Below, in pieces: positions 2,024 through 60,509 of a stretch of 64,000 bases of DNA. The notes under the pieces were generated by a model. The model saw only the letters and a list, made by a program, of their open reading frames with translations. It was not told where the DNA came from and did not search any database. Each line of letters opens with the position of its first letter. Within the stretch, counting starts at the first letter, position 1. Both the position numbers and the translations under genes were made by a program. The DNA comes from an uncultured Armatimonadetes bacterium (GTDB lineage: Bacteria; Armatimonadota; Hebobacteria; Hebobacterales; Hebobacteraceae), in assembly GCA_963716175.1 (NCBI GenBank), contig OY970296.1:2976001-3040000 (forward strand), given 5' to 3'.

Positions 2024-3148
2024 GTGCGGATAGCCATTGACGCCAGACTATTGGGGACTCGAGATACGGGGAGCGCAGTGTACACGCGCGCCCTGCTGCA
2101 GGCGCTGGCTGAACTGCCGGTCTCGCACGACTTCGCGCTCATCTGCAGCGCTGGCATCCAGGGTGCTTGGCACCCAGGTCGCCGGTTCGCCTGGCTGGAG
2201 ACTCCAGAGGCCACGCTCATGAACGAGCGGTGGGAACAACTAGACCTGCCCGCCCTGGCAGCCGAGGCCAGAGCGGAAGTCTACCTTTCCCTCACCGGGC
2301 TGCTGCCGGCCGTGCAGACGTGCCCCCAGGTGACGCTGATCCACGATGTCGGCGTAGAGGACGAACCTGGCTTCTACCCCACTCCTCTTTGGGAGTACCT
2401 CAGGAAATGGCTGCGCGCGGCCGCCGCTCAGGCCGACCGGGTGGTCACGGTCTCGCAGTTCGCGAAGGTTGGCATTGAGCGGGCATATGACGTCGACGCC
2501 GAACGAATCGACGTGGTCGCTCCCGCAGCAGAGCATCGGTTCCAGCCGGTACCAGATGGACAGGAGCGGAGACTAGTGTTGCTCCATTACGGCCTGGACG
2601 GGCCCTACGTTATCACAGTCGCCGCAGCGCAGCCGAACAAGAATCTCACCGCGGTGCTGGAGGCGTTCTGCTCGGCCGGTGGCACGGCAAGGACCGGCCA
2701 CCGGCTGGCACTAGTGGGAGGTGCAGGAGGCGCGGCGTCAGCCGTGCAAAGGGCCGTCCGCCAGCTGGGCCTGGAGGAGGCAGTTCGGTTCCTGGGGTAC
2801 GTACCGAGGGATCACCTCCCCATGCTCTACAGTGGTGCCAGCTGCTTCCTCTGGGGGTCCCTTTACGAAGGGTTCGGGCTGGCACCGCTGGAAGCGATGG
2901 CCTGCGGCACCCCCGTGGTTTCCTCCAACCGTACAGCAATGCCGGAGGTCCTGGGCGACGCCGCGCTGCTCGTTGACCCGGCCGATGCGGATGCGATGAG
3001 CTGCGCCCTCACTTCCGTGCTGTCTGACCAGTCGCTTCGGAACCAGCTGCGAGAGGCCGGGATAGCAAGGGCCCGCTGCTTCTCCTGGCAGAGGGCTGCA
3101 GAGCAGATGGTGGCCTGTCTAGAGCGGGCAGCGGCAGGGGGATCATGA
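2024..3148 (+). CDS. GT4 family glycosyltransferase
   Basis: GTG start (VRIAIDAR) after AAGGTG RBS; [17 protein letters not shown]. Confidence 0.9.
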   Translation: MRIAIDARLLGTRDTGSAVYTRALLQALAELPVSHDFALICSAGIQGAWHPGRRFAWLETPEATLMNERWEQLDLPALAAEARAEVYLSLTGLLPAVQTCPQVTLIHDVGVEDEPGFYPTPLWEYLRKWLRAAAAQADRVVTVSQFAKVGIERAYDVDAERIDVVAPAAEHRFQPVPDGQERRLVLLHYGLDGPYVITVAAAQPNKNLTAVLEAFCSAGGTARTGHRLALVGGAGGAASAVQRAVRQLGLEEAVRFLGYVPRDHLPMLYSGASCFLWGSLYEGFGLAPLEAMACGTPVVSSNRTAMPEVLGDAALLVDPADADAMSCALTSVLSDQSLRNQLREAGIARARCFSWQRAAEQMVACLERAAAGGS

Positions 3149-4401
3149 TGCGGAGCCGCGGCGGTGACGAGCGACTCAATTCCCAGACGACGGTAGCCGG
3201 ATCAGGGGATCGCCCCCTTCGCGTGCTCATGCTGGCGCCCAAGCCTGGCAGCGAGAGCGCGTTCGCCCTTGACTGGCATGTCCCTGGTCTGGCACGGGCG
3301 CTTTCAGCGCGTGGTTGCGAGGTGCATCTGGCCGGCGGCGGCCCACATACTGGCAAGCGTCTCGCGCAAGGGAGGGTTCGCCTCTACTCCGGGCAGCGGC
3401 GCCCACCATTTCGCGCTCCCGGCCCCATCTCGGACGCGCTGCAGGAGCAGGCCGGCCTGGTGGCAGCTGTGTTTCAGGCAGACGCGGATGTCGGTGCTTT
3501 CGATGTGCTGCATGCCCACGGCTGGGCCGGCGCCGCTGCCGCCCATGCCCTCAAGCGCGTGTCAGGATCGCCGCTAGTTTTCACCCTCCATCGGCTGGAG
3601 CATCTGGAACCGGACAGCCAGCAGCCGGAGGAACTCGCCTACATCCGGGAGGTCTACGCCTGGATCTGCCAGGAGGCGGAGCGGGTGATCTGCCTGTCTC
3701 GCTTCGTCATCGGGGAGGCTGCGCAGGCATACGGGCTGCCGTCCGACAAAGCACACCTGTGCCCAGTAGCGGTGGATGCAGAGGATTTGCAGACTGGTGC
3801 CGATATTGCCGCCTTCCGGGAGTTGTTCGGGGCCGGGCAGGGGAGGCTGATCACTTTCGCCGGTCGGCTCACCCGCGCTAAGGGCCCTCAGGTCCTCTTG
3901 GAGGCATTCCCGTACATACAGGCGGTCGTGCCTGATGTGAGAATGGCGATCTCTGGCGAAGGGCCTTTGGGTGCATGGCTTCTCCGGCGAGCCCAGGAGT
4001 TGGGTGTGGAGGCGGAGGTTACGTTCACCGGCTATCTGCGGGGCAAGGTGTTGGCGACGCTGCTGCGGTCAAGCGATGTTTTCGTTGCCCCAAGCCTCGT
4101 GGAGGCCTCAGGCCAGGCTGCGGCCGAGGCCATGAACTGTGGCACGGCAGTGGTGGCATCCGCCGGGGGCGGCCTGCGGGAGCTGATCGCTAACGAGGAA
4201 GATGGGCTGCTGGTTCCTCCAGACAACCCCAAAGCCCTGGCTGCCGGGGTGGTGAGGATGCTCTACGATGGTGATCTGCGCGGGAGGCTGTCAGCGAACG
4301 GCCGGCGACGCGTCATGGCCGGCCACTTGTGGCAGAGGGCGGTGGACGCCACCTTGCAGGCCTATGCCATTGCCCGAAAAGCGCGGTCGGATCTGCCCTG
4401 A
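3145..4401 (+). CDS. GT4 family glycosyltransferase
   Basis: LHAHGW, FAGRLTRAKG, PSLVEASGQAAAEAMNCG. Paralogous to 790..1965. Confidence 0.88.
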   Translation: MMRSRGGDERLNSQTTVAGSGDRPLRVLMLAPKPGSESAFALDWHVPGLARALSARGCEVHLAGGGPHTGKRLAQGRVRLYSGQRRPPFRAPGPISDALQEQAGLVAAVFQADADVGAFDVLHAHGWAGAAAAHALKRVSGSPLVFTLHRLEHLEPDSQQPEELAYIREVYAWICQEAERVICLSRFVIGEAAQAYGLPSDKAHLCPVAVDAEDLQTGADIAAFRELFGAGQGRLITFAGRLTRAKGPQVLLEAFPYIQAVVPDVRMAISGEGPLGAWLLRRAQELGVEAEVTFTGYLRGKVLATLLRSSDVFVAPSLVEASGQAAAEAMNCGTAVVASAGGGLRELIANEEDGLLVPPDNPKALAAGVVRMLYDGDLRGRLSANGRRRVMAGHLWQRAVDATLQAYAIARKARSDLP

Positions 4402-49097: not shown

Positions 49098-52000
49098 CTA
49101 CATCGGCAACTGAAACGCCCTCGCGATGTACACCGCCATCTGGTCGCGGGTGACGGGGTCGGCCGGTTTGTAGGTGCCATCCTCATACCCCTTCACCACG
49201 TTGTGGTCCACGCAGGCCTTGATCGCTACACCTGACCAGTAGCCGGCCGGCACATCCGGGAAGAGCTGCGGGGCGGTGTTGAGGGCGTCGCTGAGCGTGA
49301 CCCATCCCTTGGCGCGGGCGATGAACACCGCCATCTGGCCCCGGTCCACCACCAGCGTGGGCTGGTAGTGAGTGGCGTCATAGCCCTGCACCACACCCTG
49401 GGCCACCGCATACTCGACGTACTTGTAGGCCCACTGATCAGTGGGGACGTCATCGGGGAAGCTGGCGGTGGCCGGACCTGTGGGCACGTTGGCATCGCCC
49501 CCGGCTAGAGCGCGGCTTACGTAAACCGCCATCTGGTCGCGACTGACCGGCTCGGTGGGCTTGTAAGTGCCATCGGAGTAGCCCTGCACGATGCCGGCGT
49601 CAACCAGCGAAGCAATAGCCGATTCGGCCCAGAAACCGGCTGGGACGTCAGTGAACTGGGGTGGGAGCACAAGGTCAACTGTGGTGGTCTGCCCCGCGGT
49701 AATCACCACACCGGTCTGAGTGGCAGCGCCGTGCCCATGCGCAGTCGCCTTGACGGTCGTCCCCGTGGTCTCGGCGACGTCAATGGTGAAGGTCCCATTG
49801 GCATCGGCCGCGGTGTATAGATTCCCGCCGATCCAGATATCGGCGTAAGGAATGGGACCGCCGGTGGTAGCATCGGTCACAGCACCACTGACGGTGCCGA
49901 AGCTGCGTATGTGAGGCTCCCACATGCGGATAGCCCCCACGGAATCGCTTCCCGCCTGACTGGCAGTGACTACGAAACGCCCGTTGGCGCTCATGTCAGG
50001 AGGATCCCCACCTATTCCCCCTTCGACGAAGGCGTTATAGAGCACGACGCTCCCGATGCCCGTACGGTCTCGGACCACGATGTACCCGGTCCCGCCTCCA
50101 TACGTCCCTGGCACTACGTAGTAAAACGCGACCATCTGGCCATCCGCGCTCACCGCGACCGGGTAGGACGGATGGTACAGGCTGTATGGGGTTGCCGGCG
50201 CGTCGCCGGGCATCAGGCTGGCGAACTCCGTGGTCCCGGCCACCCGGTCACGCAGGTAGACATTACCATGACCGATGGGGCTGAAGTACGTATTGTAGAT
50301 GGGGACCAGATCATTGGCGTCAGAGCAAAAGGCCACGAAACGACCATCATGGCTCATCATCGCCACGCCGGACCAGTTGTCAGGCGCGACGATTTGCTGC
50401 GAACCGTCCTCGGCGAGGCTTACGCGTTCAGTTGTCGCTGTGGTCAGGTCGTGGAGGAAGGTGTCGATGATCCCGTTGGTGTCCCCTGCTACCAGGTTCG
50501 TCGCGGCCGATGAGAAGGCTACATAGCGGCCGTCGGCACTGATGCAGGGATCCGTTGATGGGCCGTCGGCCTGGGCCCCGTTGCTGGCCACGCTGACGCG
50601 CACTGTGCGTTTGGTCAGGAGATTGTGCACGAACACATCCGTCTGCCCGTTGGTGTCGTCCGGGACCAGGTTCGTGGCATCAGAACTGAAGCAGACATAG
50701 CGGCCGTTGGCGCTGATCGTGCCGTGGGCAATGCTATCCGCCGGCGTGCCGTCACTGGCAGCGCTGGCCAAGGTTAGGCTGGACGTCTCGCGGTCGTACA
50801 CGTAGGTCTGCCAGACTCCGGGCGGCACGTCAGGAGGCAGGACCACCGGTGAGTACGCCACATACCGCCCGTTAGCGCTGACTGAGGCGGCGGAGCCGCC
50901 GATGGCCTGAGAACCGTCCTCCGTCTTGCTGATCAGTTCGATCTGCCCAGTCGATCGGTCCAGGAGGAAGACGTTTCCCGTCTGCCCCGGTGGCAGCGGG
51001 ACCAAGTCTGTGGCGCTGGAGGCGAAGACAACATAGCGCCCGTCCGGGGTGATCACGGGGCTGTAGGAGTTCCCGTTCGGGAAAGTATTCCCGCTCATGG
51101 AGTGCACGATGATCTCCGGGTGCACGGCCCAATCCGATATAGTCCAGGGCTGCAGCGGGAAGTCAATCCCTGAGGTCGTCTGCTGATCCACGACCTCGAC
51201 GTTCGAGACTTCACCAGCGTCATAGCCTCGCATCACGGCGGTGATGGTCCAGGTCCCCGGCCAGGCGGCAAGGGCATACGTGCCGTCAGCGGCACTTATG
51301 GTCTCACCCTGGCCGCCATAGACGGTAACGCCCCCGAGCGGCTGAAGGGTGACGGCATCTCGGACGGTTCCCGTGACCGTGCCCCTGGCGATCTGGAGTG
51401 CGAAATCCACTGTCGTGGCTGCGCCCGACACCACCACGACGCTGTCCATCGTCAATGATCCGAAACCGGCGCCGCTGGCAGTCACGGAGTAGGTGCCTTC
51501 CGGCACGACCGGCAGCAGATAGCCTCCGCTGCCATCTGTGATCGCCCTCAGGTAGCTATAGGTGACTGACCCGCCAATGACGGGGTTGCCGCTGCCGGCG
51601 TCAGTGACTGTCCCTTGGATCAAGCCGATGCCCTGCGCGACATCGCGCACCTCAATCTGCTGGTTGGCGGCCACCCCGTTCTCGGTGACGATGTGATGGT
51701 TGGGGAAGACCACTTGCACCGCCACCGTAGTGGCGGTGCCGAGGCCGAACTGGCCTATGGGCTCATTCTGGCCCATGAACCCCGACCCCCCGTCAACCAT
51801 GCGCGTGAGGGTACGACCCGGGGGGAAGGAGAGGTCGTTGTCCAGATTCACCAGGATGCGGGCACCCAGCGCGTCCCGCACCGGACTGCCGTCGGTGGCG
51901 TCGCCGGTGGCGCTGGTGAGGGCGCGCACCCGCAGCCAGTGCCCATCGCCAGGCGAACCGAGGTTGTGGTAGAGCAGGGATGTGTCGCTGTCGGAGGCGC

Positions 52001-53117
52001 CGAGGAGATCCATGCTGCCGTCCCGGTCGAAGTCGGCCCAGCAGATAGCCGTGTAGTTCCGACCCGCGCTCACTCCCTCTGCGAGGCTCAGGTCCGTGAA
52101 CGTGCCGTCTCCATTGTTGTGAAAGAGGAAGGGCGCGATGCTGCCGCTGGCGGGACCGACGATGAGATCCAGAAATCCGTCGTTGTCGTAGTCGGCCCAG
52201 GCGGTGCCGCGCGTGGGCATGCTGACTGCTGACATCCCTACGAGGTCCAGCACAGAATCGAAGTGGCCGCCGGTGTTCATGCAGAAGACCGATTCCTCCG
52301 TCCGTCCATTGCCGATGAAAACGTCCAGCCAGCCGTCATTGTTGTAGTCTCCCCAGGCGACGCCGGTGCTGTCGTGTCCGGGGAAGCTGCCCGAGGAGAA
52401 CGTACCGTCTCCCTTGTTCGTGAAGAGATAGGCGTTCGTCTGCTTGGCTGGATCGAAGATGCTTCTCTGCCGCGTCATCGCCACATCCAAGAAGCCGTCA
52501 TTGTTGTAGTCGGCCCAAGCGCACCCCATGCCGTCCATGGGACTGCCCATCCCCGCCGCAGCCGTGACGTTCGAGAATGTGCCATCGCGGTTGTTGTGAT
52601 ACAGGACAGAGGGGCCGTAGTCGTTGTAGGAAACGAAGAGGTCGAGCCAGTTGTCCCCGTCGAAGTCGCCCCAGCTCGCCCCTCGACCGAAGAAGGCGCC
52701 GGTCATCGGTGCGAAACCAGCGGTTGCTCCCACATCCGTGAAATGGTCGCCGTCATTCCGGTACAGGTGCGGAGTGTGGGAGCCGCCGATGATGATGAGA
52801 TCCAGCCTGCCATCGTTGTTGTAGTCACCCCAGGCGCATCCCCATTCGTCATATGAGACCGTGTCAAGTCCCTTGGCAGCGGTGACGTCCGTGAAGGTCC
52901 CATTGCCGTTATTGTGCAGCAGCACACATGGGCCGGTCCCGCCGATATAGAGGTCAGGGTAGCCGTCGTTGTCATAGTCGCCCCAGGCCGCGCCCATGGC
53001 CGCCGGAATGTTCAGAGTGGTACCTAGGTCGGCAAAACGACCGGCGGACGCGCGACCCGAAAGGAGAAGACCGCCCAACAGCAGCACAACGGAGAGCCCC
53101 AGAGTCCGAGATGCCAT
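49098..53117 (-). CDS. secreted surface protein: FG-GAP/CRTAC1-like repeats, ASPIC/UnbV, carboxypeptidase-regulatory-like, TolB-like propeller, SLH domains
   Basis: Signal peptide; WGDYDNDGYPDL repeats; DALGARI..GGSGF..QFGLG; ISADGRYVAF; C-terminal VTRDQMAVYIAR SLH repeats. Confidence 0.92.
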   Translation of the reverse strand: MASRTLGLSVVLLLGGLLLSGRASAGRFADLGTTLNIPAAMGAAWGDYDNDGYPDLYIGGTGPCVLLHNNGNGTFTDVTAAKGLDTVSYDEWGCAWGDYNNDGRLDLIIIGGSHTPHLYRNDGDHFTDVGATAGFAPMTGAFFGRGASWGDFDGDNWLDLFVSYNDYGPSVLYHNNRDGTFSNVTAAAGMGSPMDGMGCAWADYNNDGFLDVAMTRQRSIFDPAKQTNAYLFTNKGDGTFSSGSFPGHDSTGVAWGDYNNDGWLDVFIGNGRTEESVFCMNTGGHFDSVLDLVGMSAVSMPTRGTAWADYDNDGFLDLIVGPASGSIAPFLFHNNGDGTFTDLSLAEGVSAGRNYTAICWADFDRDGSMDLLGASDSDTSLLYHNLGSPGDGHWLRVRALTSATGDATDGSPVRDALGARILVNLDNDLSFPPGRTLTRMVDGGSGFMGQNEPIGQFGLGTATTVAVQVVFPNHHIVTENGVAANQQIEVRDVAQGIGLIQGTVTDAGSGNPVIGGSVTYSYLRAITDGSGGYLLPVVPEGTYSVTASGAGFGSLTMDSVVVVSGAATTVDFALQIARGTVTGTVRDAVTLQPLGGVTVYGGQGETISAADGTYALAAWPGTWTITAVMRGYDAGEVSNVEVVDQQTTSGIDFPLQPWTISDWAVHPEIIVHSMSGNTFPNGNSYSPVITPDGRYVVFASSATDLVPLPPGQTGNVFLLDRSTGQIELISKTEDGSQAIGGSAASVSANGRYVAYSPVVLPPDVPPGVWQTYVYDRETSSLTLASAASDGTPADSIAHGTISANGRYVCFSSDATNLVPDDTNGQTDVFVHNLLTKRTVRVSVASNGAQADGPSTDPCISADGRYVAFSSAATNLVAGDTNGIIDTFLHDLTTATTERVSLAEDGSQQIVAPDNWSGVAMMSHDGRFVAFCSDANDLVPIYNTYFSPIGHGNVYLRDRVAGTTEFASLMPGDAPATPYSLYHPSYPVAVSADGQMVAFYYVVPGTYGGGTGYIVVRDRTGIGSVVLYNAFVEGGIGGDPPDMSANGRFVVTASQAGSDSVGAIRMWEPHIRSFGTVSGAVTDATTGGPIPYADIWIGGNLYTAADANGTFTIDVAETTGTTVKATAHGHGAATQTGVVITAGQTTTVDLVLPPQFTDVPAGFWAESAIASLVDAGIVQGYSDGTYKPTEPVSRDQMAVYVSRALAGGDANVPTGPATASFPDDVPTDQWAYKYVEYAVAQGVVQGYDATHYQPTLVVDRGQMAVFIARAKGWVTLSDALNTAPQLFPDVPAGYWSGVAIKACVDHNVVKGYEDGTYKPADPVTRDQMAVYIARAFQLPM

Positions 53118-53193
53118 CGCACATTCCCCCTAGTACAGCAGTACCGGGCCCCCTCGAAAGTGACGATGGCCAGAACTAGCGGCCCGTGGTCCG

Positions 53194-53222
53194 ATTGTAC
53201 CTCGGCCCCGGGCTCAATGCAA
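53194..53222 (-). promoter_or_regulatory. sigma70-type promoter
   Basis: TTGCAT-N17-TACAAT on the minus strand, upstream of 53117. Confidence 0.65.
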
Positions 53223-53294
53223 CCGCCCAGCCCGCCCTTGCGCCTCGCTGAGACAGGCTGAAGGCTACACTACTCGCCATCTACCCGCAACCGC

Positions 53295-55901
53295 TCACAC
53301 CGGCAACTCGAACGCTCTCGCGATATACACCGCCATCTGGTCGCGAGTCACGGGATTGGTAGGCTGGTAGGTGCCGTTGTCATATCCCTTGACCACGTCG
53401 TGATCCACGCAGGCCTTGATCGCCACGCCCGACCAGTAGCCGGCCGGCACATCTGGGAAGAGCTGCGGGGCGGTGTTGAGGGCGTCGCTGAGCTTGACCC
53501 ATCCCTTCGCCCGGGCGATGAACACCGCCATCTGACCGCGATCCACCACCAGCGTGGGCTCGTAGTGAGTGGCGTCATACCCCTGTACCACGCCCTGGGC
53601 CACCGCGTACTCGACATACTTGTAGGCCCAGAAATCAGTAGGGACATCATCGGGGAAGCTGGCGGTGGCCGGCCCTGTGGGCACGTTGGCATCACCCCCG
53701 GCCAGAGCGCGGGAGATGTAGACCGCCATCTGGTCGCGGGTGACCGCCACTTCAGGATGGTAGGTGCCATCGGGATAGCCTAGCGCGATGCTGGCGTTAG
53801 ACACGGCCTCGATGGCGCCGAAGGCCCAGAACTGATACCCCGCGTCCGTGAACTTGTCCTCCGCAAGCGCCGCCGCCACATCCTTCACTACGATTGTCTG
53901 GTTCACGGCGATGTCGTAGTGAATGACCACCGTGCCGTCCGGGAAGCGCACCCGCACCGCCACTGGCCCATCAGTAGGGATGCCGAACTGCGCCACCTGC
54001 TCGCTCTCAGCGCAGAAGCCGGACCCGCCGTCGATGAGCCGAGTCAGGGTGTGGCCAGGCGGGAAACTGGCGTCGTTGTCCACGTTCAACTCGACCCGTG
54101 CGCCGATGGCGTCACGCGTGGGTTTGCTGGTGTCAGTGGTATCACCGGCGGCACTGGTGATAGCGCGCAGCCGCAGCCAGTTGTCGCTAGTGCCGATGTT
54201 GTGGAAGAGCCAAGATGGCGTATCGTAGAGCGCTTGTACCACATCCACGCGACCGTCAAGATTAACGTCGGCCCACGCAACCCCGCCGCTGGCGCCCTGG
54301 TGATCAACGTCGAGGCCCGACCCGGCCACCATGTTCGTGAATGTGCCATTACCGTTGTTGTGGTAGAGAAACGGCTGCTGACCAAAGTTGCCAACGAACA
54401 GGTCAAGGTAACCGTCGTTATCGTAATCAGCCCAGGCCGCGCCCTGCGCGTTGTAGGCGTCGCCTGCCATGCCGGCAACGTTGGCGACGTCAGTGAACGT
54501 GCCATTGTGGTCGTTGTGGAAGAGCCAGTCGGGCGCTGATTCGCCGCTCGTGAAATAGCAGTCAAGCCAGCCGTCGTTATCGTAGTCTCCCCAGATCGCG
54601 CTTAGTGTGTTCACCGGAATGGTTACTCCGGCCTGAGCACTCACATCGGTGTAGGTTCCGTCACCGTTGTTATGAAAAAGCATGGCTGGTTTGTACATGC
54701 GAGCGAGAAGCAGATCGGGGTGGCCATCGTTGTCGTAGTCGCCCCAGGCGGCCGATTGGACGGCATCAGCTCCCCCCAGACCGGCAGCTGCAGCAATATC
54801 GGTGAAGGTGCCATCACCATTGTTCCGCAGCAGATAGGCGTTCCCGAAAATGTTGCACACAAAAGCATCCAGCAGGCCGTCGCCGTTGAAGTCGCACCAC
54901 GACACGCTGCTGCCGGCATTGAACGCCACATGCAGGCCGGCATCGGCGCCGAGCTCCACGAACTGAGACGGATCGCGACGGAATAGCCACGGGTAGGCAT
55001 CGCCACCAACCAGGACATCAAGGAGGCCGTCGTTGTTGTAGTCGCCCCACGCAACCCCAGAGTCTGGCGCGGGTGCAGTGGGGAGTTTCAGCGTTTGGCT
55101 CACGTCAGCGAATGTGAGATCATGGCCATTGCGAAAGAGCATTGGTCCGTGTTGGGGATGGGAAGTCCCCTGATCGTAGCCCCCAAAGAACAAGTCCGGG
55201 TACCCGCCGCTGTCATAGTCACCCCAGCCAACACCAACCGAGTTTGGGAGGTTAAGCCCGGTGACTTGCTCGAACTGCGGCCCTGCCTTGACTGGCAGTT
55301 GCGCCAGCGAGAAGTCTTGCGTCGCGGTCTGCCCCGACACCACCGCCACACCCGTCGCGCTCCCCCACTTGTGGCCTCCGGCGGCCGCGCCGACGCGATA
55401 GCCCGTGCCCACAGGGACGTTGGCGAGGGTATAGCTGCCATCGACACTAGTGGTCGCGCTCAGCGCGCCGCAGGTGACATGCGCCCACTGGATGGGCAAG
55501 CCGCTGGCCCCGTCCGTGACCCGGCCCACGATAGAGCCAAAGGCGGTCGGCGACAGCGAGAAGTCCACCGTGCTGATCTCGCCCTCGACCACCGCGACGG
55601 TGCTGGCCGAAGACGGGGTGTGATCCGGAGCGCTGGCGGCAACCGTGTAGCTCCCGATGCCCAGGTCTGAGAACCCGTACCGGCCCCTGGCATCCGTGGT
55701 TGCGGTGAGGCTGCCACAGGACATAGCTGCCCCGCCGATGGGCAGTCGGGTAGCCGAATCCGACACCACCCCTGCGATGGCGCCAGTGGGGGTTACCGCC
55801 AGGGCCAGCTTCAGCGCGGCACCGTCGGCCTGGCAGGCCACTGCGAAGAGAGAAATGAGAAACGCCAGCACGATAGCAGGGACAGCCGTTCTTCGGGCCA
55901 T
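53295..55901 (-). CDS. secreted surface protein: carboxypeptidase-regulatory-like, FG-GAP repeats, ASPIC/UnbV, SLH domains
   Basis: Signal peptide MARRTAVPAIVLAFL; WGDYDNDG repeats; SLH tail nearly identical to that of the neighbouring paralogue. Confidence 0.92.
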   Translation of the reverse strand: MARRTAVPAIVLAFLISLFAVACQADGAALKLALAVTPTGAIAGVVSDSATRLPIGGAAMSCGSLTATTDARGRYGFSDLGIGSYTVAASAPDHTPSSASTVAVVEGEISTVDFSLSPTAFGSIVGRVTDGASGLPIQWAHVTCGALSATTSVDGSYTLANVPVGTGYRVGAAAGGHKWGSATGVAVVSGQTATQDFSLAQLPVKAGPQFEQVTGLNLPNSVGVGWGDYDSGGYPDLFFGGYDQGTSHPQHGPMLFRNGHDLTFADVSQTLKLPTAPAPDSGVAWGDYNNDGLLDVLVGGDAYPWLFRRDPSQFVELGADAGLHVAFNAGSSVSWCDFNGDGLLDAFVCNIFGNAYLLRNNGDGTFTDIAAAAGLGGADAVQSAAWGDYDNDGHPDLLLARMYKPAMLFHNNGDGTYTDVSAQAGVTIPVNTLSAIWGDYDNDGWLDCYFTSGESAPDWLFHNDHNGTFTDVANVAGMAGDAYNAQGAAWADYDNDGYLDLFVGNFGQQPFLYHNNGNGTFTNMVAGSGLDVDHQGASGGVAWADVNLDGRVDVVQALYDTPSWLFHNIGTSDNWLRLRAITSAAGDTTDTSKPTRDAIGARVELNVDNDASFPPGHTLTRLIDGGSGFCAESEQVAQFGIPTDGPVAVRVRFPDGTVVIHYDIAVNQTIVVKDVAAALAEDKFTDAGYQFWAFGAIEAVSNASIALGYPDGTYHPEVAVTRDQMAVYISRALAGGDANVPTGPATASFPDDVPTDFWAYKYVEYAVAQGVVQGYDATHYEPTLVVDRGQMAVFIARAKGWVKLSDALNTAPQLFPDVPAGYWSGVAIKACVDHDVVKGYDNGTYQPTNPVTRDQMAVYIARAFELPV

Positions 55902-55956
55902 CGCACACCCCCCTGATGCAGCAATACCGGACCCCCTCGAAGCGGCCCGTGGCGAC

Positions 55957-55985
55957 AGTATAGCGCGGCGCCAGGTGTAGGACAA
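55957..55985 (-). promoter_or_regulatory. sigma70-type promoter
   Basis: TTGTCC-N17-TATACT on the minus strand, upstream of 55901. Confidence 0.65.
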
Positions 55986-56169: not shown

Positions 56170-57093
56170 CTAGCCTGGCTGATCGCCTGCCGGCCCGAGC
56201 ATCCCCTCCAGCTTCTCGACGGCGGCCAGCTTGGTGCGCACATCCGAGTGCAGGTATCTCGCCGTCGTCCCGATGTCCGCGTGCCCCAGCAGCTCCTGCA
56301 CCGTGCGGATGTCGGCGCCCGAGCGGATGAGGTGGGTGGCAAAGGTATGGCGGAGTTTGTGGGGGGTAATGCCTTTGCCCGCGAGCCCGGCTTTGCCGAG
56401 CGTGCGCGCCAGCATCCGGCTGATGGCTCTGCCGGAGATGGGCTGGCCGAACTGGCTCACAAAGAGCCGGTGGCTGTCCGTCCTCTTGCGCTGGCGCAGG
56501 TACTGCTCGATGGCCGCAACGGCCTGCTCTGCCAGAGGCACCACTCTCTCCTTCGCCCCTTTGCCGTGTACCAGCAGTTGCCGGTTCTCCAGGTCCAGAT
56601 CCTCCAGGCTGATCTGGGCGATCTCGCTGCGCCGCATGCCCGTGGAGAGCAGCAGCACCACCAAGCACTTGTGCCAGGGCCGCTGGGCTGCCTGCAGGAG
56701 TCGCTGGGCATCTGCTTCCGTGAGCGTCACGGGCACCTGCTGTTCCAGTCTGGGCAGAGGCAGCCTGCGGGCGGGATTGCCCGAGACATGGCCCATGTCC
56801 TGGAGGAAGCCAAAGAAGGAGGACAACACCCAGAGCTTCCGTCTCACCGTCAGGGGTGCTCGATCTGCCAGGCTCACCGCGAACTGCATCACCTGCTGGC
56901 GCGTGATCTGATCGGGAGGGGGCGGCTGACCCAGGCGCTGGGAGAGGAACTCCGAGAAGGCCCGCAGGTCGCGGCGGTACGCCTTGACGGAGATGGGAGC
57001 GCAGCTGCGATAGCCCCTCAGGTACTCCAGGAACATCGCCACCGCCTCCTCGAAGGAGAGCGTGCCGGCCTCGGCGTCGTGGGTAGCGGTCAC
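56170..57093 (-). CDS. XerC/D-like tyrosine recombinase (copy 2)
   Basis: GTG start overlapping the upstream stop; TGMRRSE, GKGAKER, HKLRHTFAT, LLGH, TTARY. Confidence 0.92.
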   Translation of the reverse strand: MTATHDAEAGTLSFEEAVAMFLEYLRGYRSCAPISVKAYRRDLRAFSEFLSQRLGQPPPPDQITRQQVMQFAVSLADRAPLTVRRKLWVLSSFFGFLQDMGHVSGNPARRLPLPRLEQQVPVTLTEADAQRLLQAAQRPWHKCLVVLLLSTGMRRSEIAQISLEDLDLENRQLLVHGKGAKERVVPLAEQAVAAIEQYLRQRKRTDSHRLFVSQFGQPISGRAISRMLARTLGKAGLAGKGITPHKLRHTFATHLIRSGADIRTVQELLGHADIGTTARYLHSDVRTKLAAVEKLEGMLGPAGDQPG

Positions 57094-58055
57094 GGCTGTG
57101 CTCCCTCCTCTCTCTGCGGAACACTCTCCCCGAGCAGACCCGTCAGCCTTCCTACTGCCGCCAGCTTCGTGCGCACATCCGAGTGCAGGTACCGCGCCGT
57201 CGTCCCCAGATCGGCATGGCCCAGGAGCTCCTGCACGGTGCGCACATCCACGCCCTTGTGGATGAGCTGGGTAGCGAAGGTGTGGCGCAGCTTGTGAGGG
57301 GTAATCCCCTGGCCCGCCAGCCCCGCCTTCTCCAGCACCTGGTCCAGCATGGCGTTGACCACGTGGCCTCGGATGGGCTGTCCACGGGAGTTCACAAAGA
57401 GCCGCCGGCTCTGGGTGCGGGGCCGGTGGGGCAGGTACTGCTGGATGGCCGCCACGGCCTGACGGGTGAGGGGGACGATCCGCTGCTTGGCTCCCTTCCC
57501 GTGCACCAGCAGTTGCCGGTTGGTCAGGTCCACCTCCTCCAGGCTGATCAGCACCGCCTCGCTTCTGCGCAGGCCCGTCGCCAGCAGCAGCATGATGAGG
57601 CACCGATGCCAGGGCAGTTCGGCCGCCGCCAGCAGTTGCTGCGCCTGCTCCTCTGAGAGCGTCACCGGGATGTGCTGCTCCAGCTTCGGGAGGGGTAGTC
57701 TCTTGGCGGGATTGCCCTGGACATAGCCCATATCCTGAAGGAAGCCGAAGAAGGAGGAGAGACAGGCCAGCTTGCTGCGCACCGTGATCGGGGACCAGTG
57801 CGACAAGGAGACCGCGTACTGAATCACCAGCTGGCGGGTGATCGCAGCCGGAGCTGGCAGCGGCCCGGGTTGCGAGGAGAGGAACTGCTGGAAGTTGCGC
57901 AGGGTCGTGGCGTAGGCTCGGACAGAGGCAGGAGCGCAGCTGCGGTAGCTCCGCAGGTACTCCAGGAACATCGGCACCGCCTGCTCCAAGGGGAGCTCGT
58001 CCCCGGTGGAGGGCGGTGCGGCACGGGCCGCTTCGGCCTGGGCGAGAGTGGTCAT
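57090..58055 (-). CDS. XerC/D-like tyrosine recombinase (copy 1)
   Basis: GAGGAGG RBS; TGLRRSE, GKGAKQR, HKLRHTFAT, LLGH, TTARY. Confidence 0.92.
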   Translation of the reverse strand: MTTLAQAEAARAAPPSTGDELPLEQAVPMFLEYLRSYRSCAPASVRAYATTLRNFQQFLSSQPGPLPAPAAITRQLVIQYAVSLSHWSPITVRSKLACLSSFFGFLQDMGYVQGNPAKRLPLPKLEQHIPVTLSEEQAQQLLAAAELPWHRCLIMLLLATGLRRSEAVLISLEEVDLTNRQLLVHGKGAKQRIVPLTRQAVAAIQQYLPHRPRTQSRRLFVNSRGQPIRGHVVNAMLDQVLEKAGLAGQGITPHKLRHTFATQLIHKGVDVRTVQELLGHADLGTTARYLHSDVRTKLAAVGRLTGLLGESVPQREEGAQP

Positions 58056-58216
58056 GCACGCCTCCTCTGGTGGATGGTTGCGGCATGACATGAATCACTT
58101 CAAGCGGCGAACAAGTCCAGGCCTTTGTGCAAGTATTCTGTGGGGTGGGCCCTAGTGCGGGTATTTCGTATCCCCTCGATTTCGGGCCAGGATGGCTCTA
58201 GGAGCCACGAGAAGAG

Positions 58217-58610
58217 TGGAGTGGGCCGATAAGCCGAGTTTTGGCGCGACATTCGCCCGATACGTCAGGTTATGTCGCGAGCGTCCATCTATCTAGGGCT
58301 GCGATCGCTCGCAGCCTCAAGCGGCCAACCCGGGGCTGATGCGGCGTCGGGCCAACGCTGGTCCCCAACCGGGGACTCGCCCCCTATTTGGCCTTGCTCC
58401 GGGCGGGGTTTGGCCAGCCGGTGTGTCTCCACGCCGCTGGTGCGCTCTTACCGCACCATTTCACCCTTGCCCAGCTCGCGCCGGGCGGTATGTTTCTGTG
58501 CCACTTTCCGTCGGGTCGCCCCGCCTGGGCGTTACCCAGCGCCCTGCCCTGTGGAGCTCGGACTTTCCTCGTTCCGCCATCGGCGAACCGCGGACGCTTG
58601 GCCCACTCCA
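58217..58610 (-). ncRNA. rnpB: RNase P RNA (bacterial type A)
   Basis: GAGGAAAGTCCGAGCTCCACAGGGCAGGG, ACAGAAA, GGGTGAAATGGTGCGGTAAGAGCGCACC, AAACCCC..GAGCAAGGCCAAATAGG, TAGATAGATG, AAAACTCGGCTTA; P1 GGAGTGGGCC pairs with GGCCCACTCC. Confidence 0.97.
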
Positions 58611-59078
58611 TCTCCATTCTACCACATGCTCGGCGTCTCCGCGCCAACCGGCCGCACTGTCCTCGCCAGAGCATGTCTCACTTCCCGGAGCAGGTGCCAC
58701 GCGCCTCGGATGTGACCGTCTATGGCTGCCCAGGCGGCCTAGCACAGTTGATGCAGGGTATGCGGGGCGTGATTCTCACAGCGGCCACGGAACCGATGCA
58801 GGTGGAGATGTAAGGCCGTTGTCATCCGCGCGCGACATGAATGCTGGCCCGCGTACACCCCGCGCGGACTGATCCCGCCGTCACCACGGGCGAATCATGC
58901 CGGTGGCATTGACCGCGAGTTCCGGCCTGCACATTTCGGTCGACCGGGATGCGAAGGCGGCTAGACTTCTTCACCCATCGAAACTGGTTGATTCCACGAT
59001 CTGCTGAAAGCCGCTGAACAAGTCCGGGTGTGCCCCTCACCCGGCAGCAAGCTGTTTTCGTCGGCAAACATGACAGTC

Positions 59079-59175
59079 AATCGGTAGGCTGAGTTCTGGC
59101 GCGAACGTCCTGCCCTGTGGACCTCGGACTTTCCTCAGCCGCCTCTCGGCGACCGCGGACGCCTGGCCCACTCCA
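59079..59175 (-). repeat. internally deleted rnpB-derived copy 1 (mini-rnpB)
   Basis: TGGAGTGGGCCAGGCGTCC..GAGGAAAGTCCGAGGTCCACAGGGCAGG joined directly to ACGTTCGCGCCAGAACTCAGCCTA. Confidence 0.9.
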
Positions 59176-59282
59176 TCTGCATACCACCATGATGCTCGGC
59201 ATGGTCGCGCTGACCAGCCGCACGACCCTTGTTAACATGAGTCTCCCCCGCCCTGGAGCAGGATACGGGTACACAACGTACC

Positions 59283-59311
59283 TTGACAGGTCATGTCGAT
59301 ATGACTATCAT
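59283..59311 (+). promoter_or_regulatory. TA operon promoter with a palindromic operator in the spacer
   Basis: TTGACA-N17-TATCAT; spacer holds the near-palindrome GTCATGTCGATATGAC (59290-59305). Confidence 0.8.
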
Positions 59312-59340
59312 GGTCTCGTAGGGGAAAGGCAAGGAGCGCC

Positions 59341-59631
59341 ATGAGAACCGCAGCCATCTCCCGTCTGAAGGCCAAGCTTAGCGAGCACATCGCGTGGGTC
59401 AAGCGCGGGGAGGAGGTCCTGGTGACCGAACGCGGGAAGCCGGTCGCGCGCATCGTGCCGGTGGCCCCGGGGACAGCGGGTGACGACCGAATGCCGGGGC
59501 TGATCGCTCGAGGCATCGTGCGATTGGGGAAGAAGCAGCTCCGCAAGGCGCTCTCGGATTTGCCCGTCTGCAGGGTGCCGAAAGGAGCAGTGCTGCGCGC
59601 TCTGGACGACGAAAGGCAGGACCGAGCATGA
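59341..59631 (+). CDS. vapB: Phd/YefM-family antitoxin
   Basis: ISRLKAKLSEHIAWVKRGEEVLVTERGKPVARIVP; AAGGAG RBS. Confidence 0.92.
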   Translation: MRTAAISRLKAKLSEHIAWVKRGEEVLVTERGKPVARIVPVAPGTAGDDRMPGLIARGIVRLGKKQLRKALSDLPVCRVPKGAVLRALDDERQDRA

Positions 59632-60059
59632 GGTGGTGGGATACCTCAGCCCTGTTGTCTCTGTTGCTGCAACAGGAGACGACTGACGAGCTCAAGGCGC
59701 TGCTCGCGTCAGACGACACTCTCGTAGTGTGGTGGGGCACAAAGGTGGAGGCAGTCTCTGCCGTGTCCCGGCTGCAGCGCGATGGCTATACTGAGTCCCG
59801 CGTCAGCGCTCGCCTGTTCAAGCACCTAGATGGCCTGCTGTCAGCGGCCTACGAAGTGCAGCCGCTGGAAGAGGTCCGCGCCACGGCCTGCCGAGCGCTT
59901 CGCGTCCATGAACTGCGCGCCGCGGACGCGCTGCAGTTAGCAGCAGCCCTCGTTTGGGCAGAGCACCATCCCACAGGATTAGGCTTCGTGTGCCTGGACC
60001 GCAGGCTTCGCGAGGCAGCCACGCGCGAGGGATTTGAGGTACTGCCCGAATCGTCGTGA
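59628..60059 (+). CDS. vapC: PIN-domain VapC toxin
   Basis: WWDTSAL, LRAADALQLAAA, FVCLDRRLREAA..EGF; ATGA overlap with the antitoxin. Confidence 0.92.
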   Translation: MRWWDTSALLSLLLQQETTDELKALLASDDTLVVWWGTKVEAVSAVSRLQRDGYTESRVSARLFKHLDGLLSAAYEVQPLEEVRATACRALRVHELRAADALQLAAALVWAEHHPTGLGFVCLDRRLREAATREGFEVLPESS

Positions 60060-60124
60060 GCGCACTGCCGCGGGTGGAAGTGAACGCCAACGTAGACAGC
60101 CGGTCTCTCGTCGCTTAGTCGCTG

Positions 60125-60223
60125 AATCGGTAGGCCGAGTTTCGTCGCGAGCGCCCTGCCCTGTGGAGCTCGGACTCTCCTCGGCTGCCACAAGCGGCGA
60201 CTGCGGACGCTTGGCCCACTCCA
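60125..60223 (-). repeat. internally deleted rnpB-derived copy 2 (mini-rnpB)
   Basis: TGGAGTGGGCCAAGCGTCC..GAGGAGAGTCCGAGCTCCACAGGGCAGGGCGCTCGCGACGAAACTCGGCCTACCGATT. Confidence 0.9.
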
Positions 60224-60509
60224 TTGGGATTGCAGCACATTCCGAGCGCGCGGTCCTCCGCTAACCCGCTGCCAATGGGCCCGTCGCACTCCAGGCGGTG
60301 CCGAAGCACCTACCGGCGATTATGGAACTCAAGTGCATCTGGGGAGACTGGGAGGTTCTCCACTGCCGGGCTCGGCGCCGTCTGACACCCGGAATGTGCT
60401 CCTGTGTGACAGTGGGGGCAGGCACTTGGCCGACGGCAGCGAATCTGCGCGGCAGCGCAATGAAGCTGGGTTTCGTGCGGTTGCGGGTCTCCGGCTGGGA
60501 GGGCCTCCG

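Follow-up and report, generated by a model that had tools for sequence, protein, structure and literature searches.

Truncated copies of rnpB upstream of the RNase P RNA gene of an Armatimonadota bacterium as probable relics of serial insertion

Islands and prophages whose tyrosine integrases target tRNA or transfer-messenger RNA (tmRNA) genes are known as Islander-type elements (PMC4383910), and the islands of the dusA-specific integrases are among those that restore their target's 5' end (PMC4482086). Here we compare these systems with a locus around rnpB, the gene for the class-A RNase P RNA, in a window of 64,000 nt from an uncultured Armatimonadetes bacterium (assembly GCA_963716175.1, contig OY970296.1, positions 2,976,001 to 3,040,000). 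Two strongly shortened copies of rnpB, called minis below, lie upstream of the real gene, one on each side of a vapBC toxin-antitoxin module. We consider them probably to be decayed attL-type relics of rnpB, that is, pseudogenes left by serial insertions. Within the partial literature coverage available, we found neither rnpB described as an attachment site nor arrays of rnpB pseudogenes described in bacteria, and the pseudogene passages seen in the Bcheck paper concern eukaryotes. An insertion system that replaces rnpB appears to be undescribed, as an unusual variant of island integration, while the minis themselves appear ordinary.

The three copies and the elements that define them are listed here with their window coordinates. 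In the labels used throughout, L1 is the rnpB body, L2 the island arm, O the core CTCGGCT, R1 the true rnpB 3' end and R2 the tail TAnCGrTyGACTG.

58214..58609, reverse strand: rnpB, the functional gene for class-A RNase P RNA (Rfam RF00010, 282.9 bits, E 4.7e-92, model positions 1-367)
58218..58238, reverse strand: recombination core and rnpB 3' end (O = CTCGGCT, R1 = TATCGGCCCACTCC), located by regular expression and BLAST over the whole genome
59074..59174, reverse strand: mini-rnpB copy 1, consisting of the rnpB 5' segment, a deletion, the P2 and P4 3' strands, the core CTCAGCC and the tail TACCGATTGACTG (R2)
60120..60222, reverse strand: mini-rnpB copy 2, built as copy 1, with the core CTCGGCC and the tail TACCGATTCAGCG (R2)
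59175..59223, reverse strand: degenerate rnpB promoter region 5' of copy 1, homologous to 58610-58657
58250..58279, reverse strand: segment in the real rnpB that resembles a degenerate core and tail (CGCGACATAACCTGACGTATCGGGCGAATG), seen as an insertion by cmscan and aligning with the junctions of the other copies

An earlier reading of the letters, the original prediction, had described two repeats of about 100 nt derived from rnpB and sharing its orientation. These are real, with corrected coordinates as listed and 5' ends at 59174 and 60222. BLAST of 58100-60400 against the whole genome, a single contig of 4.56 Mb, aligned copy 2 with copy 1 (84% over 100 nt, E 1e-22) and with rnpB (88% over 76 nt, E 3e-18), and copy 1 with the rnpB 5' part plus 48 nt of upstream sequence (82.5% over 120 nt, E 4e-23); the genome holds no copy matching copy 1 beyond these three places. 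Alignment bears out the predicted composition. More specifically, the first 70 nt or so of rnpB (the P1 and P2 5' strands, P3, GAGGAAAGUCC and CCACAGGGCAGG) are fused straight to a 3' segment (GGACGYU, CGCG, AACUCRGC), with about 290 nt absent in between, and are followed by the tail CCTACCGATT, which is common to both minis and foreign to rnpB. R2 takes the position of the P1 3' strand, which is kept by the real gene alone, the downstream-most of the three copies. The P3 hairpin of copy 1 with its GAGA tetraloop folds as described in a computed structure. An upstream homology of about 50 nt had been noted between copy 1 and rnpB; it is present, although not limited to those two, since all three copies have it. 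The -10 box of the copy 1 promoter region, as read from the alignment, is GGTATG against TAGAAT in rnpB.

Compared with the class A family (RF00010), from which they derive, the minis keep P3, the 5' strands of P1, P2 and P4, and the 3' strands of P2 and P4. They lack the specificity domain (P7-P14), P15-P18 and the P1 3' strand, and P4 is mismatched. Both copies fall short of the gathering score of 100 bits. Copy 1 gives a weak match across the whole model (59069-59174, reverse strand, 20.2 bits, E 0.0057), in which cmscan skips 167 and 81 model positions, and for copy 2 no RF00010 match was reported at E≤1.

The real gene carries an irregularity of its own. The insertion of about 30 nt at 58250-58279 looks like a second, degenerate copy of the gene's own 3' region with an R2-like tail, and a second CGCGCC-AAAA-core comes after it. 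A hairpin of 8 bp (CGCGACAU...AUGUCGCG), made of this insertion and the bases after it, occupies the position of P19. This segment is possibly the scar of a third, collapsed junction event that is now tolerated as a P19-like hairpin.

In the alignment, both minis and every related copy lose their homology to rnpB inside the core and continue into R2. Because they track rnpB as far as O and then diverge into R2, the minis correspond to L1-O-R2 junctions, and judged by the aligned letters the break falls at the recombination core and not at a random place. The pattern of core and R2, with at most one mismatch, was matched 14 times, in 9 of the order's 16 genomes, against 6 times for a reversed-pattern control; 7 or 8 of these 14 terminate rnpB-like sequence, and Rfam added two copies with diverged tails (contig C101 of G002, and G001). 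At least six other genomes of the family have the same break and tail, as do 24 of 45 metagenome loci, and the repeats are thus not unique to one genome; uniqueness would have spoken for neutral debris in the original prediction.

The relatives' copies range from full-length bodies to small stumps and are often arrayed. G011 (253.6 bits), G007 (256.7 bits) and G005 have full-length bodies with an R2 tail. The upstream copy of G011 is complete save for R1, which is replaced by TATCGGTGGACTG, and its downstream copy has R1 followed by an integrase gene. Short, sub-threshold matches across the whole Rfam model, which mark partly deleted copies, were obtained among the 16 genomes in G013, G014 (two, 1.7 kb apart), G002 and G001, and G008 has a stump of about 40 nt. 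The 45 loci come from Joint Genome Institute metagenome contigs and match AACTCGGC plus R2. Their rnpB homology was judged by a hidden Markov model built from six real genes; the 24 homologous loci include 7 complete bodies, and arrays of two to three copies stand on 3 contigs. At least one match of core and R2 (L089) is the normal rnpB of another lineage, whose own P1 3' strand fits the pattern, and the remaining matches outside rnpB look like chance.

This metagenomic gene of another lineage (L089, 1443-1840, reverse strand) deserves a description of its own. Its true P1 is formed by CGTCGCAGTCG...CGACTGCGACG, with the 3' strand ...GGTCGACTGCGACG pairing with CGTCGCAGTCG at the 5' end, so that the 3' end matches the R2 motif. 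A foreign rnpB may, with its two P1 strands, have been the source of the R2 tail and perhaps of the island arm, an origin to which this P1 is a possible clue. In a further group of loci (L087, L090/L110, L094/L098, L105 and L106), R2 is often followed by a sequence that makes a short palindrome with it (for example GACTGCTA-TGA-TAGCAGT), in some cases succeeded by TAGTGGGCCGA, which resembles the 5' start of rnpB.

On the other side of the core, the real gene adjoins two recombinase genes, and its 3' end recurs along the chromosome.

57090..58055, reverse strand: tyrosine recombinase int1, 321 aa, of Xer-like build (Pfam Phage_integrase 5e-44 and Phage_int_SAM_1)
56170..57096, reverse strand: tyrosine recombinase int2, 308 aa, in tandem with int1 (Pfam Phage_integrase 1e-48 and Phage_int_SAM_1)
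58100..58213, reverse strand: spacer from rnpB to the recombinase genes, repeated with the core at -14337 (96.4%) and -132497 (98.5%)
-14219..-14199, -98909..-98889 and -132387..-132367 (window coordinates), reverse strand: downstream copies of the 21-mer of core and 3' end, located by regular expression and BLAST

The tandem of int1 and int2 starts about 160 nt past rnpB. The 21-mer occurs four times in the whole genome, always on one strand, and the final 25 nt of rnpB recur three times, 72-190 kb downstream, on the rnpB strand. In BLAST, these 25 nt together with a 115-nt spacer are repeated at the two spacer positions given above, and the 3' end alone at -98928. Each downstream repeat consists of a non-rnpB arm with short direct repeats ending in ..AATCGCGAC, then CTCGGCT and TATCGGCCCACTCC, and recombinase paralogues (86%, 85% and 61% identity) come next in all three cases. 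The downstream side has the familiar layout of stacked islands that adjoin the 3' end of a structured-RNA gene, and rnpB is an integration hotspot.

In comparison with Islander-type islands, the downstream side of rnpB fits fully. The shared traits are an integrase gene beside a structured-RNA gene (here int1 and int2 adjoin the target), a crossover in its 3' end, 3'-fragment repeats of the crossover core at the element ends, and tandem stacking; the minis also hold the core, with one or two changes. The upstream side differs. A displaced 3' part with a 3' end restored by the island was not found at the minis, which are displaced 5' parts without the 3' end, nearly the whole gene as opposed to 3' fragments, and the target is rnpB. 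In this respect the locus resembles the dusA islands, in which it is likewise the upstream part of the gene that is displaced, and promoter and 5' part have to come from the element. In contrast to the protein gene dusA, the crossover here lies about 20 nt from the 3' end of a ribozyme gene of about 400 nt, and for this reason the element would need to carry a whole rnpB and the displaced piece would be a near-complete pseudogene.

The two sides of the core also show a symmetry. R2 of copy 1 (CGATTGACTG) forms an inverted repeat with the arm of the -98.9 kb site (10/10), and R2 of copy 2 does so with the -132 kb arm (9/10). In its own genome this symmetry fits what would be expected of paired core-type binding sites and of a nested order of events.

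An intermediate state was observed in the relative G008. In the window, the order is copy 2, vapBC, copy 1, 460 nt, the real rnpB and int1/int2. In G008 it is a stump of about 40 nt (GGACGCCCGCGGCAGAACTC..GGGTTGAC), vapBC, the real rnpB with R1, a small open reading frame and an integrase gene; the small frame between rnpB and the integrase can be read as hicB-like. The PIN protein of G008 is 71% identical to the VapC of the window, and a full rnpB thus lies beside an orthologous vapBC at the position of copy 1. Since copy 1 stands where G008 has a working rnpB, the window corresponds to the state of G008 after one further split of that gene. L107, a close relative from metagenomes, retains at least positions 74-371 of the body before a tail of the copy 1 type (87.5% over 72 nt), and a vapC-like gene comes after body and tail.

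vapBC itself comprises the following features.

59283..59311, forward strand: vapBC promoter-like site (TTGACA, 17 nt, TATCAT; 11/12 matches)
59341..59631, forward strand: vapB-type antitoxin of the Phd/YefM family (Pfam PF02604, E 9e-8)
59628..60059, forward strand: vapC-type PIN-domain toxin (Pfam PF01850, E 2e-6), the protein with 71% identity to its counterpart beside the G008 rnpB

As in VapBC-type type II toxin-antitoxin systems, a small antitoxin gene and a PIN toxin gene overlap by 4 nt. The site upstream of them is the sole sigma-70-like promoter found in 58000-60400. Upstream of copy 2 lies a Ser/Thr kinase gene.

The deletion within the minis had been taken to share one junction. 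It does lie in the same region of both copies, although the joints are not strictly identical. The longest direct repeat in the G011_dn- and L077-type rnpB genes is CGCTCGC, at positions 69 and 325, and a deletion between these repeats gives GGG-CGCTCGC-GAC, the exact junction of copy 2. Copy 1 crosses a few nucleotides earlier and keeps the 3'-type base (CAGG-ACGTT), whereas copy 2 keeps the 5'-type (CAGG-GCGCT), so the two deletions are probably independent. The shared deletion probably reflects recurrent slippage within one microhomology window (GG[G/A]CGCT[CGC]), which explains the similar junctions better than the common origin that they had seemed to indicate.

These observations lead to the following account, in which we infer the direction of events and the action of the local recombinases. 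The core CTCGGCT in the last 25 nt of rnpB would be used by the tyrosine recombinases encoded just downstream. Insertion at the core would sever the resident body from its own P1 3' strand and leave it upstream, joined to the foreign tail TAnCGrTyGACTG as an attL-type junction, with a complete rnpB and its proper 3' end then lying downstream, beside the recombinase genes. Conservative site-specific recombination yields an L1-O-R2 product only with a partner that carries O-R2. In the window genome, in G011 and in G008, a complete rnpB (L1-O-R1) sits between the stranded copy and the recombinase genes, and the simplest account is therefore that the insert brings promoter and body. That the incoming DNA brings an rnpB is a point on which we lean, by a small measure, to the affirmative. 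Such a unit would act as a 5'-restoring cassette or island that replaces its target. The stranded bodies would then decay, through the slippage loss of about 290 nt and subsequent mutations in promoter, P4 and core. Read from oldest to newest, the array would run from copy 2 through vapBC, copy 1 and the 460 nt to the real rnpB, with copy 2 as an older remnant and copy 1 as the remnant of the rnpB formerly beside vapBC, and ordinary, 3'-restoring islands would accumulate on the other side of the same core. The incoming form could be either a small cassette (R2, cargo, promoter, body) or the left end of a composite island (R2 ... rnpB, integrase ... L2), and the same recombination could interconvert the two. 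The original prediction had listed scars of repeated integration among its readings, and the common break, the tail, the core repeats and the recombinases support it.

In its widest form, the account would make rnpB, in this bacterial family, the docking site of a two-sided mobile system, with islands on one side and cassettes of cargo and complete rnpB on the other, and with serial horizontal replacement of rnpB by paired Xer-like recombinases. We regard this extension as tentative and rather doubtful.

Several results weigh against the account of serial insertion. An unrearranged attP (arm, core, R2) was found in 0 of 31 genomes of the class and in 0 viral contigs, and the same genomes and viral contigs yielded no circular cassette. 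A second scan of viral contigs gave 15 loci, 14 of them unrelated, and the remaining one (L211) holds arm, core and R1 only. The symmetry of R2 and arm is strong in the window genome only and drops to about 6-7/10 in G011 and in genus g11. Matching three 'attL' with three 'attR' junctions depends on reading the insertion inside rnpB as a scar. The downstream array is without a full reconstruction, and inverted core-like sites at about -178 kb are unexplained. The DNA between copies lacks classic mobility genes, and housekeeping-type genes are sometimes found there (hemA in G014, redox genes in G005). Finally, RNA contigs over 59031-59204, maybe cross-matches from community rnpB, leave room for transcription of copy 1.

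The inverted sites are two further arm-core-like sequences, on the forward strand at about -178622 and -178069, which read CAGTCAATCGCGGC-CTCGGCT-TGCGGGCC.. and ..CAATCGCGAC-GTCCGCT-TACCGGCCGACC.. and hint at an inversion or at another element family. In G014, two R2-tailed remnants (L028, contig C58, 3001-3149 and 4766-4902) lie on the same strand either side of hemA, which encodes glutamyl-tRNA reductase. As another origin of the tail, R2 was considered as native chromosomal flank, since an FAD oxidoreductase gene follows it in G014 and L098; this was rejected, the two proteins being 25% identical. In relatives with an empty-looking site (G006, G011 and G002), the orthologues of the flanks lie far from the locus in the window genome. 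In favour of a link between copies and recombinases, G006 has neither an integrase within about 1.5 kb of rnpB nor extra copies. Retro-copying of RNase P RNA was likewise rejected, as the copies include untranscribed promoter sequence and lack the RNA 3' end.

Among the other explanations, the one that survives best treats the array as a working, integron-like cassette platform, in which int1 and int2 move units between direct cores with the minis as recombination sites; it is close to the cassette array of att-like sites, anchored at rnpB and with vapBC as a unit, that was first proposed for the repeats. That proposal holds in outline, as each mini carries the core of the rnpB-targeting recombinases, units sit between direct core repeats, and their content varies. 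Cores in direct orientation do flank vapBC, the recombinase genes adjoin, and arrays of full-length copies occur on metagenome contigs. The content between repeats also varies among relatives, as had been anticipated: the stretch of about 6 kb between the copies of G011 and G005, two species of one genus, shares only the rnpB parts and is otherwise wholly different, and the inter-copy content of the window genome differs from that of L107. The contrast between G011 and G005 fits serial insertion as well. Integrons offer several likenesses, namely a recombinase beside a primary site, units between repeated sites, a toxin-antitoxin unit and content that varies in relatives. However, the repeats here derive from rnpB and are not attC hairpins, the two recombinases are Xer-like, of a generic Phage_integrase and SAM_1 build, and appear not to be IntI, the cargo mostly faces away from the array direction with its own promoter (as the promoter-like site of vapBC illustrates), and growth of the array would replace a copy of an essential gene; the resemblance to integrons stops at the layout. 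Mismatch in the core generally hinders strand exchange by tyrosine recombinases, and the copy 1 core is mutated (CTCAGCC) and that of copy 2 is one base off (CTCGGCC against CTCGGCT). Because of these one or two changes the array looks frozen here, although its minis do carry the recombinase core. After excision via the core of the real gene, the sole rnpB would be a mini body without function. No excision joint of 59.09 kb to 60.13 kb was present among the contigs of the three DNA runs, which is weak evidence, as contigs drop rare forms. We therefore hold a working platform to be unlikely.

Elements that insert at dif, such as the CTX-phi and TLC arrays, use Xer recombinases, and in them newcomers adjoin the one functional site while dead hybrid sites remain. 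By analogy, the minis could be compared with such dead sites, with the difference that the recombinases here would be encoded by the inserted DNA and that the site lies in rnpB and not in dif.

A more remote prospect is that the minis are selected, functional small RNAs, whether RnpA decoys, VapC-related RNAs or regulators, as the original prediction had also suggested. Copy 1 has a stable P3 hairpin and folds better than shuffled sequences (z -2.5), whereas copy 2 reaches z -1.6 with a predicted fold unlike that of copy 1, and longer versions give z -0.4 and -0.7. Universally conserved P4 bases are altered (GAGGAGAGUCC in copy 2, CUCAGCC in copy 1), the score of copy 1 is far below the Rfam gathering threshold, the -10 boxes of the minis are degraded, and no promoter-like site was called on their strand in 58000-60400. 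One compensatory change was seen in a hairpin of a separate 5'-fragment locus, which G013 and G014 have in common; among the relatives' copies, however, every degree of deletion occurs and no one form is conserved. The single RNA run consists mostly of the core of community rnpB. Its contigs over copy 1 are ambiguous and copy 2 has none. With degraded promoters, mutated P4, differing folds and varied deletions in relatives, the decoy and VapC-related readings gained no support, and we judge a selected function to be quite improbable.

The locus of G013 and G014 mentioned above is orthologous in the two genomes (L025, 1438-1558, contig C404 of G013; L039, about 3010-3200, contig C83 of G014) and consists of about 58 nt of the rnpB 5' end fused to two hairpins, with a compensatory double change in one stem (GGGACCC/GGGTCCC against GGGAACC/GGTTCCC).

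Plain tandem duplication around rnpB and subsequent random decay, without any site-specific recombination, would account for the promoter-region homology and the orientation common to all three copies. It is disfavoured, and in our estimate very improbable, as copies in at least six other genomes and at 24 metagenome loci end within the same few core bases with the same tail motif, the break point is the edge of the core repeated at island ends, and the flanks between copies are not duplicated. An assembly artefact is the least credible explanation: such repeats do break short-read assemblies, and in several relatives rnpB lies in pieces across many contigs, but this genome is a single contig, and contigs from three public metagenome runs of three studies (X1, which is possibly the source sample, X2 and X3) extend across each mini into its unique flanks, so that the arrangement is not a misassembly. 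One contig each of X2 and X3 joins 58411 to 59101, with 31-nt sides, and this joint probably stems from the rnpB of other organisms.

Further observations concern the recombinases and the relatives. int1 and int2 form a paralogous pair, where a lone integrase might have been expected, and two of the three downstream core repeats also have this pair behind them; at the corresponding position, G011 and G008 have one recombinase gene only. Among named relatives, those nearest to int1 belong to metagenome-assembled genomes (MAGs) labelled Armatimonadota and Candidatus Hebobacteria (53-56% identity), and the flanks examined of the three closest of these homologues contained no rnpB. An integrase-based scan of genome contigs returned mostly generic Xer homologues (31-40%). 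The first island cargo after the recombinases consists of two very large surface proteins with FG-GAP, CarboxypepD_reg and SLH domains (49098-55985, reverse strand; 1339 and 896 aa). In G011, the next gene behind the rnpB-linked integrase encodes a Thoeris ThsB-like TIR protein (L026, 4367-4993).

In G001, also a single contig, two mini-like copies only (L032, 3001-3164; L033, 3001-3207) and no full-length rnpB were detected (best Rfam match 17 bits). A protein-only RNase P (PF08745) is not evident in it; the matches, in all 5 genomes tested, were C-terminal and partial, inside proteins of about 400 aa. The missing gene could be an assembly gap or something stranger. In G007 (L009, contig C393, 1341-1564), the tmRNA gene, a classic island target, has the 5' half of rnpB (model positions 1-222) some 900 nt downstream of it. 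G010 has a divergent fragment resembling the rnpB 5' end in two copies (L041 and L042, contigs C79 and C51), with a different P3 and a common upstream sequence.

For annotation, these results mean that the minis are pseudogene debris and should be labelled so; labels as small RNAs or additional RNase P genes would be out of place. The gene of an essential ribozyme serves here as an attachment site, at a point so near its 3' end that nearly all of the gene is stranded by an insertion, and the full-length rnpB copies that lack the P1 3' strand alone provide a natural series on the dispensability of P1. If the proposed mechanism is true, it would account for the fragmented or 'missing' rnpB in many MAGs of the group, and rnpB would join the short list of structured-RNA genes exploited by integrases. 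In this lineage, rnpB would then have been replaced repeatedly by horizontally moving copies, which would bear on its use as a phylogenetic marker.

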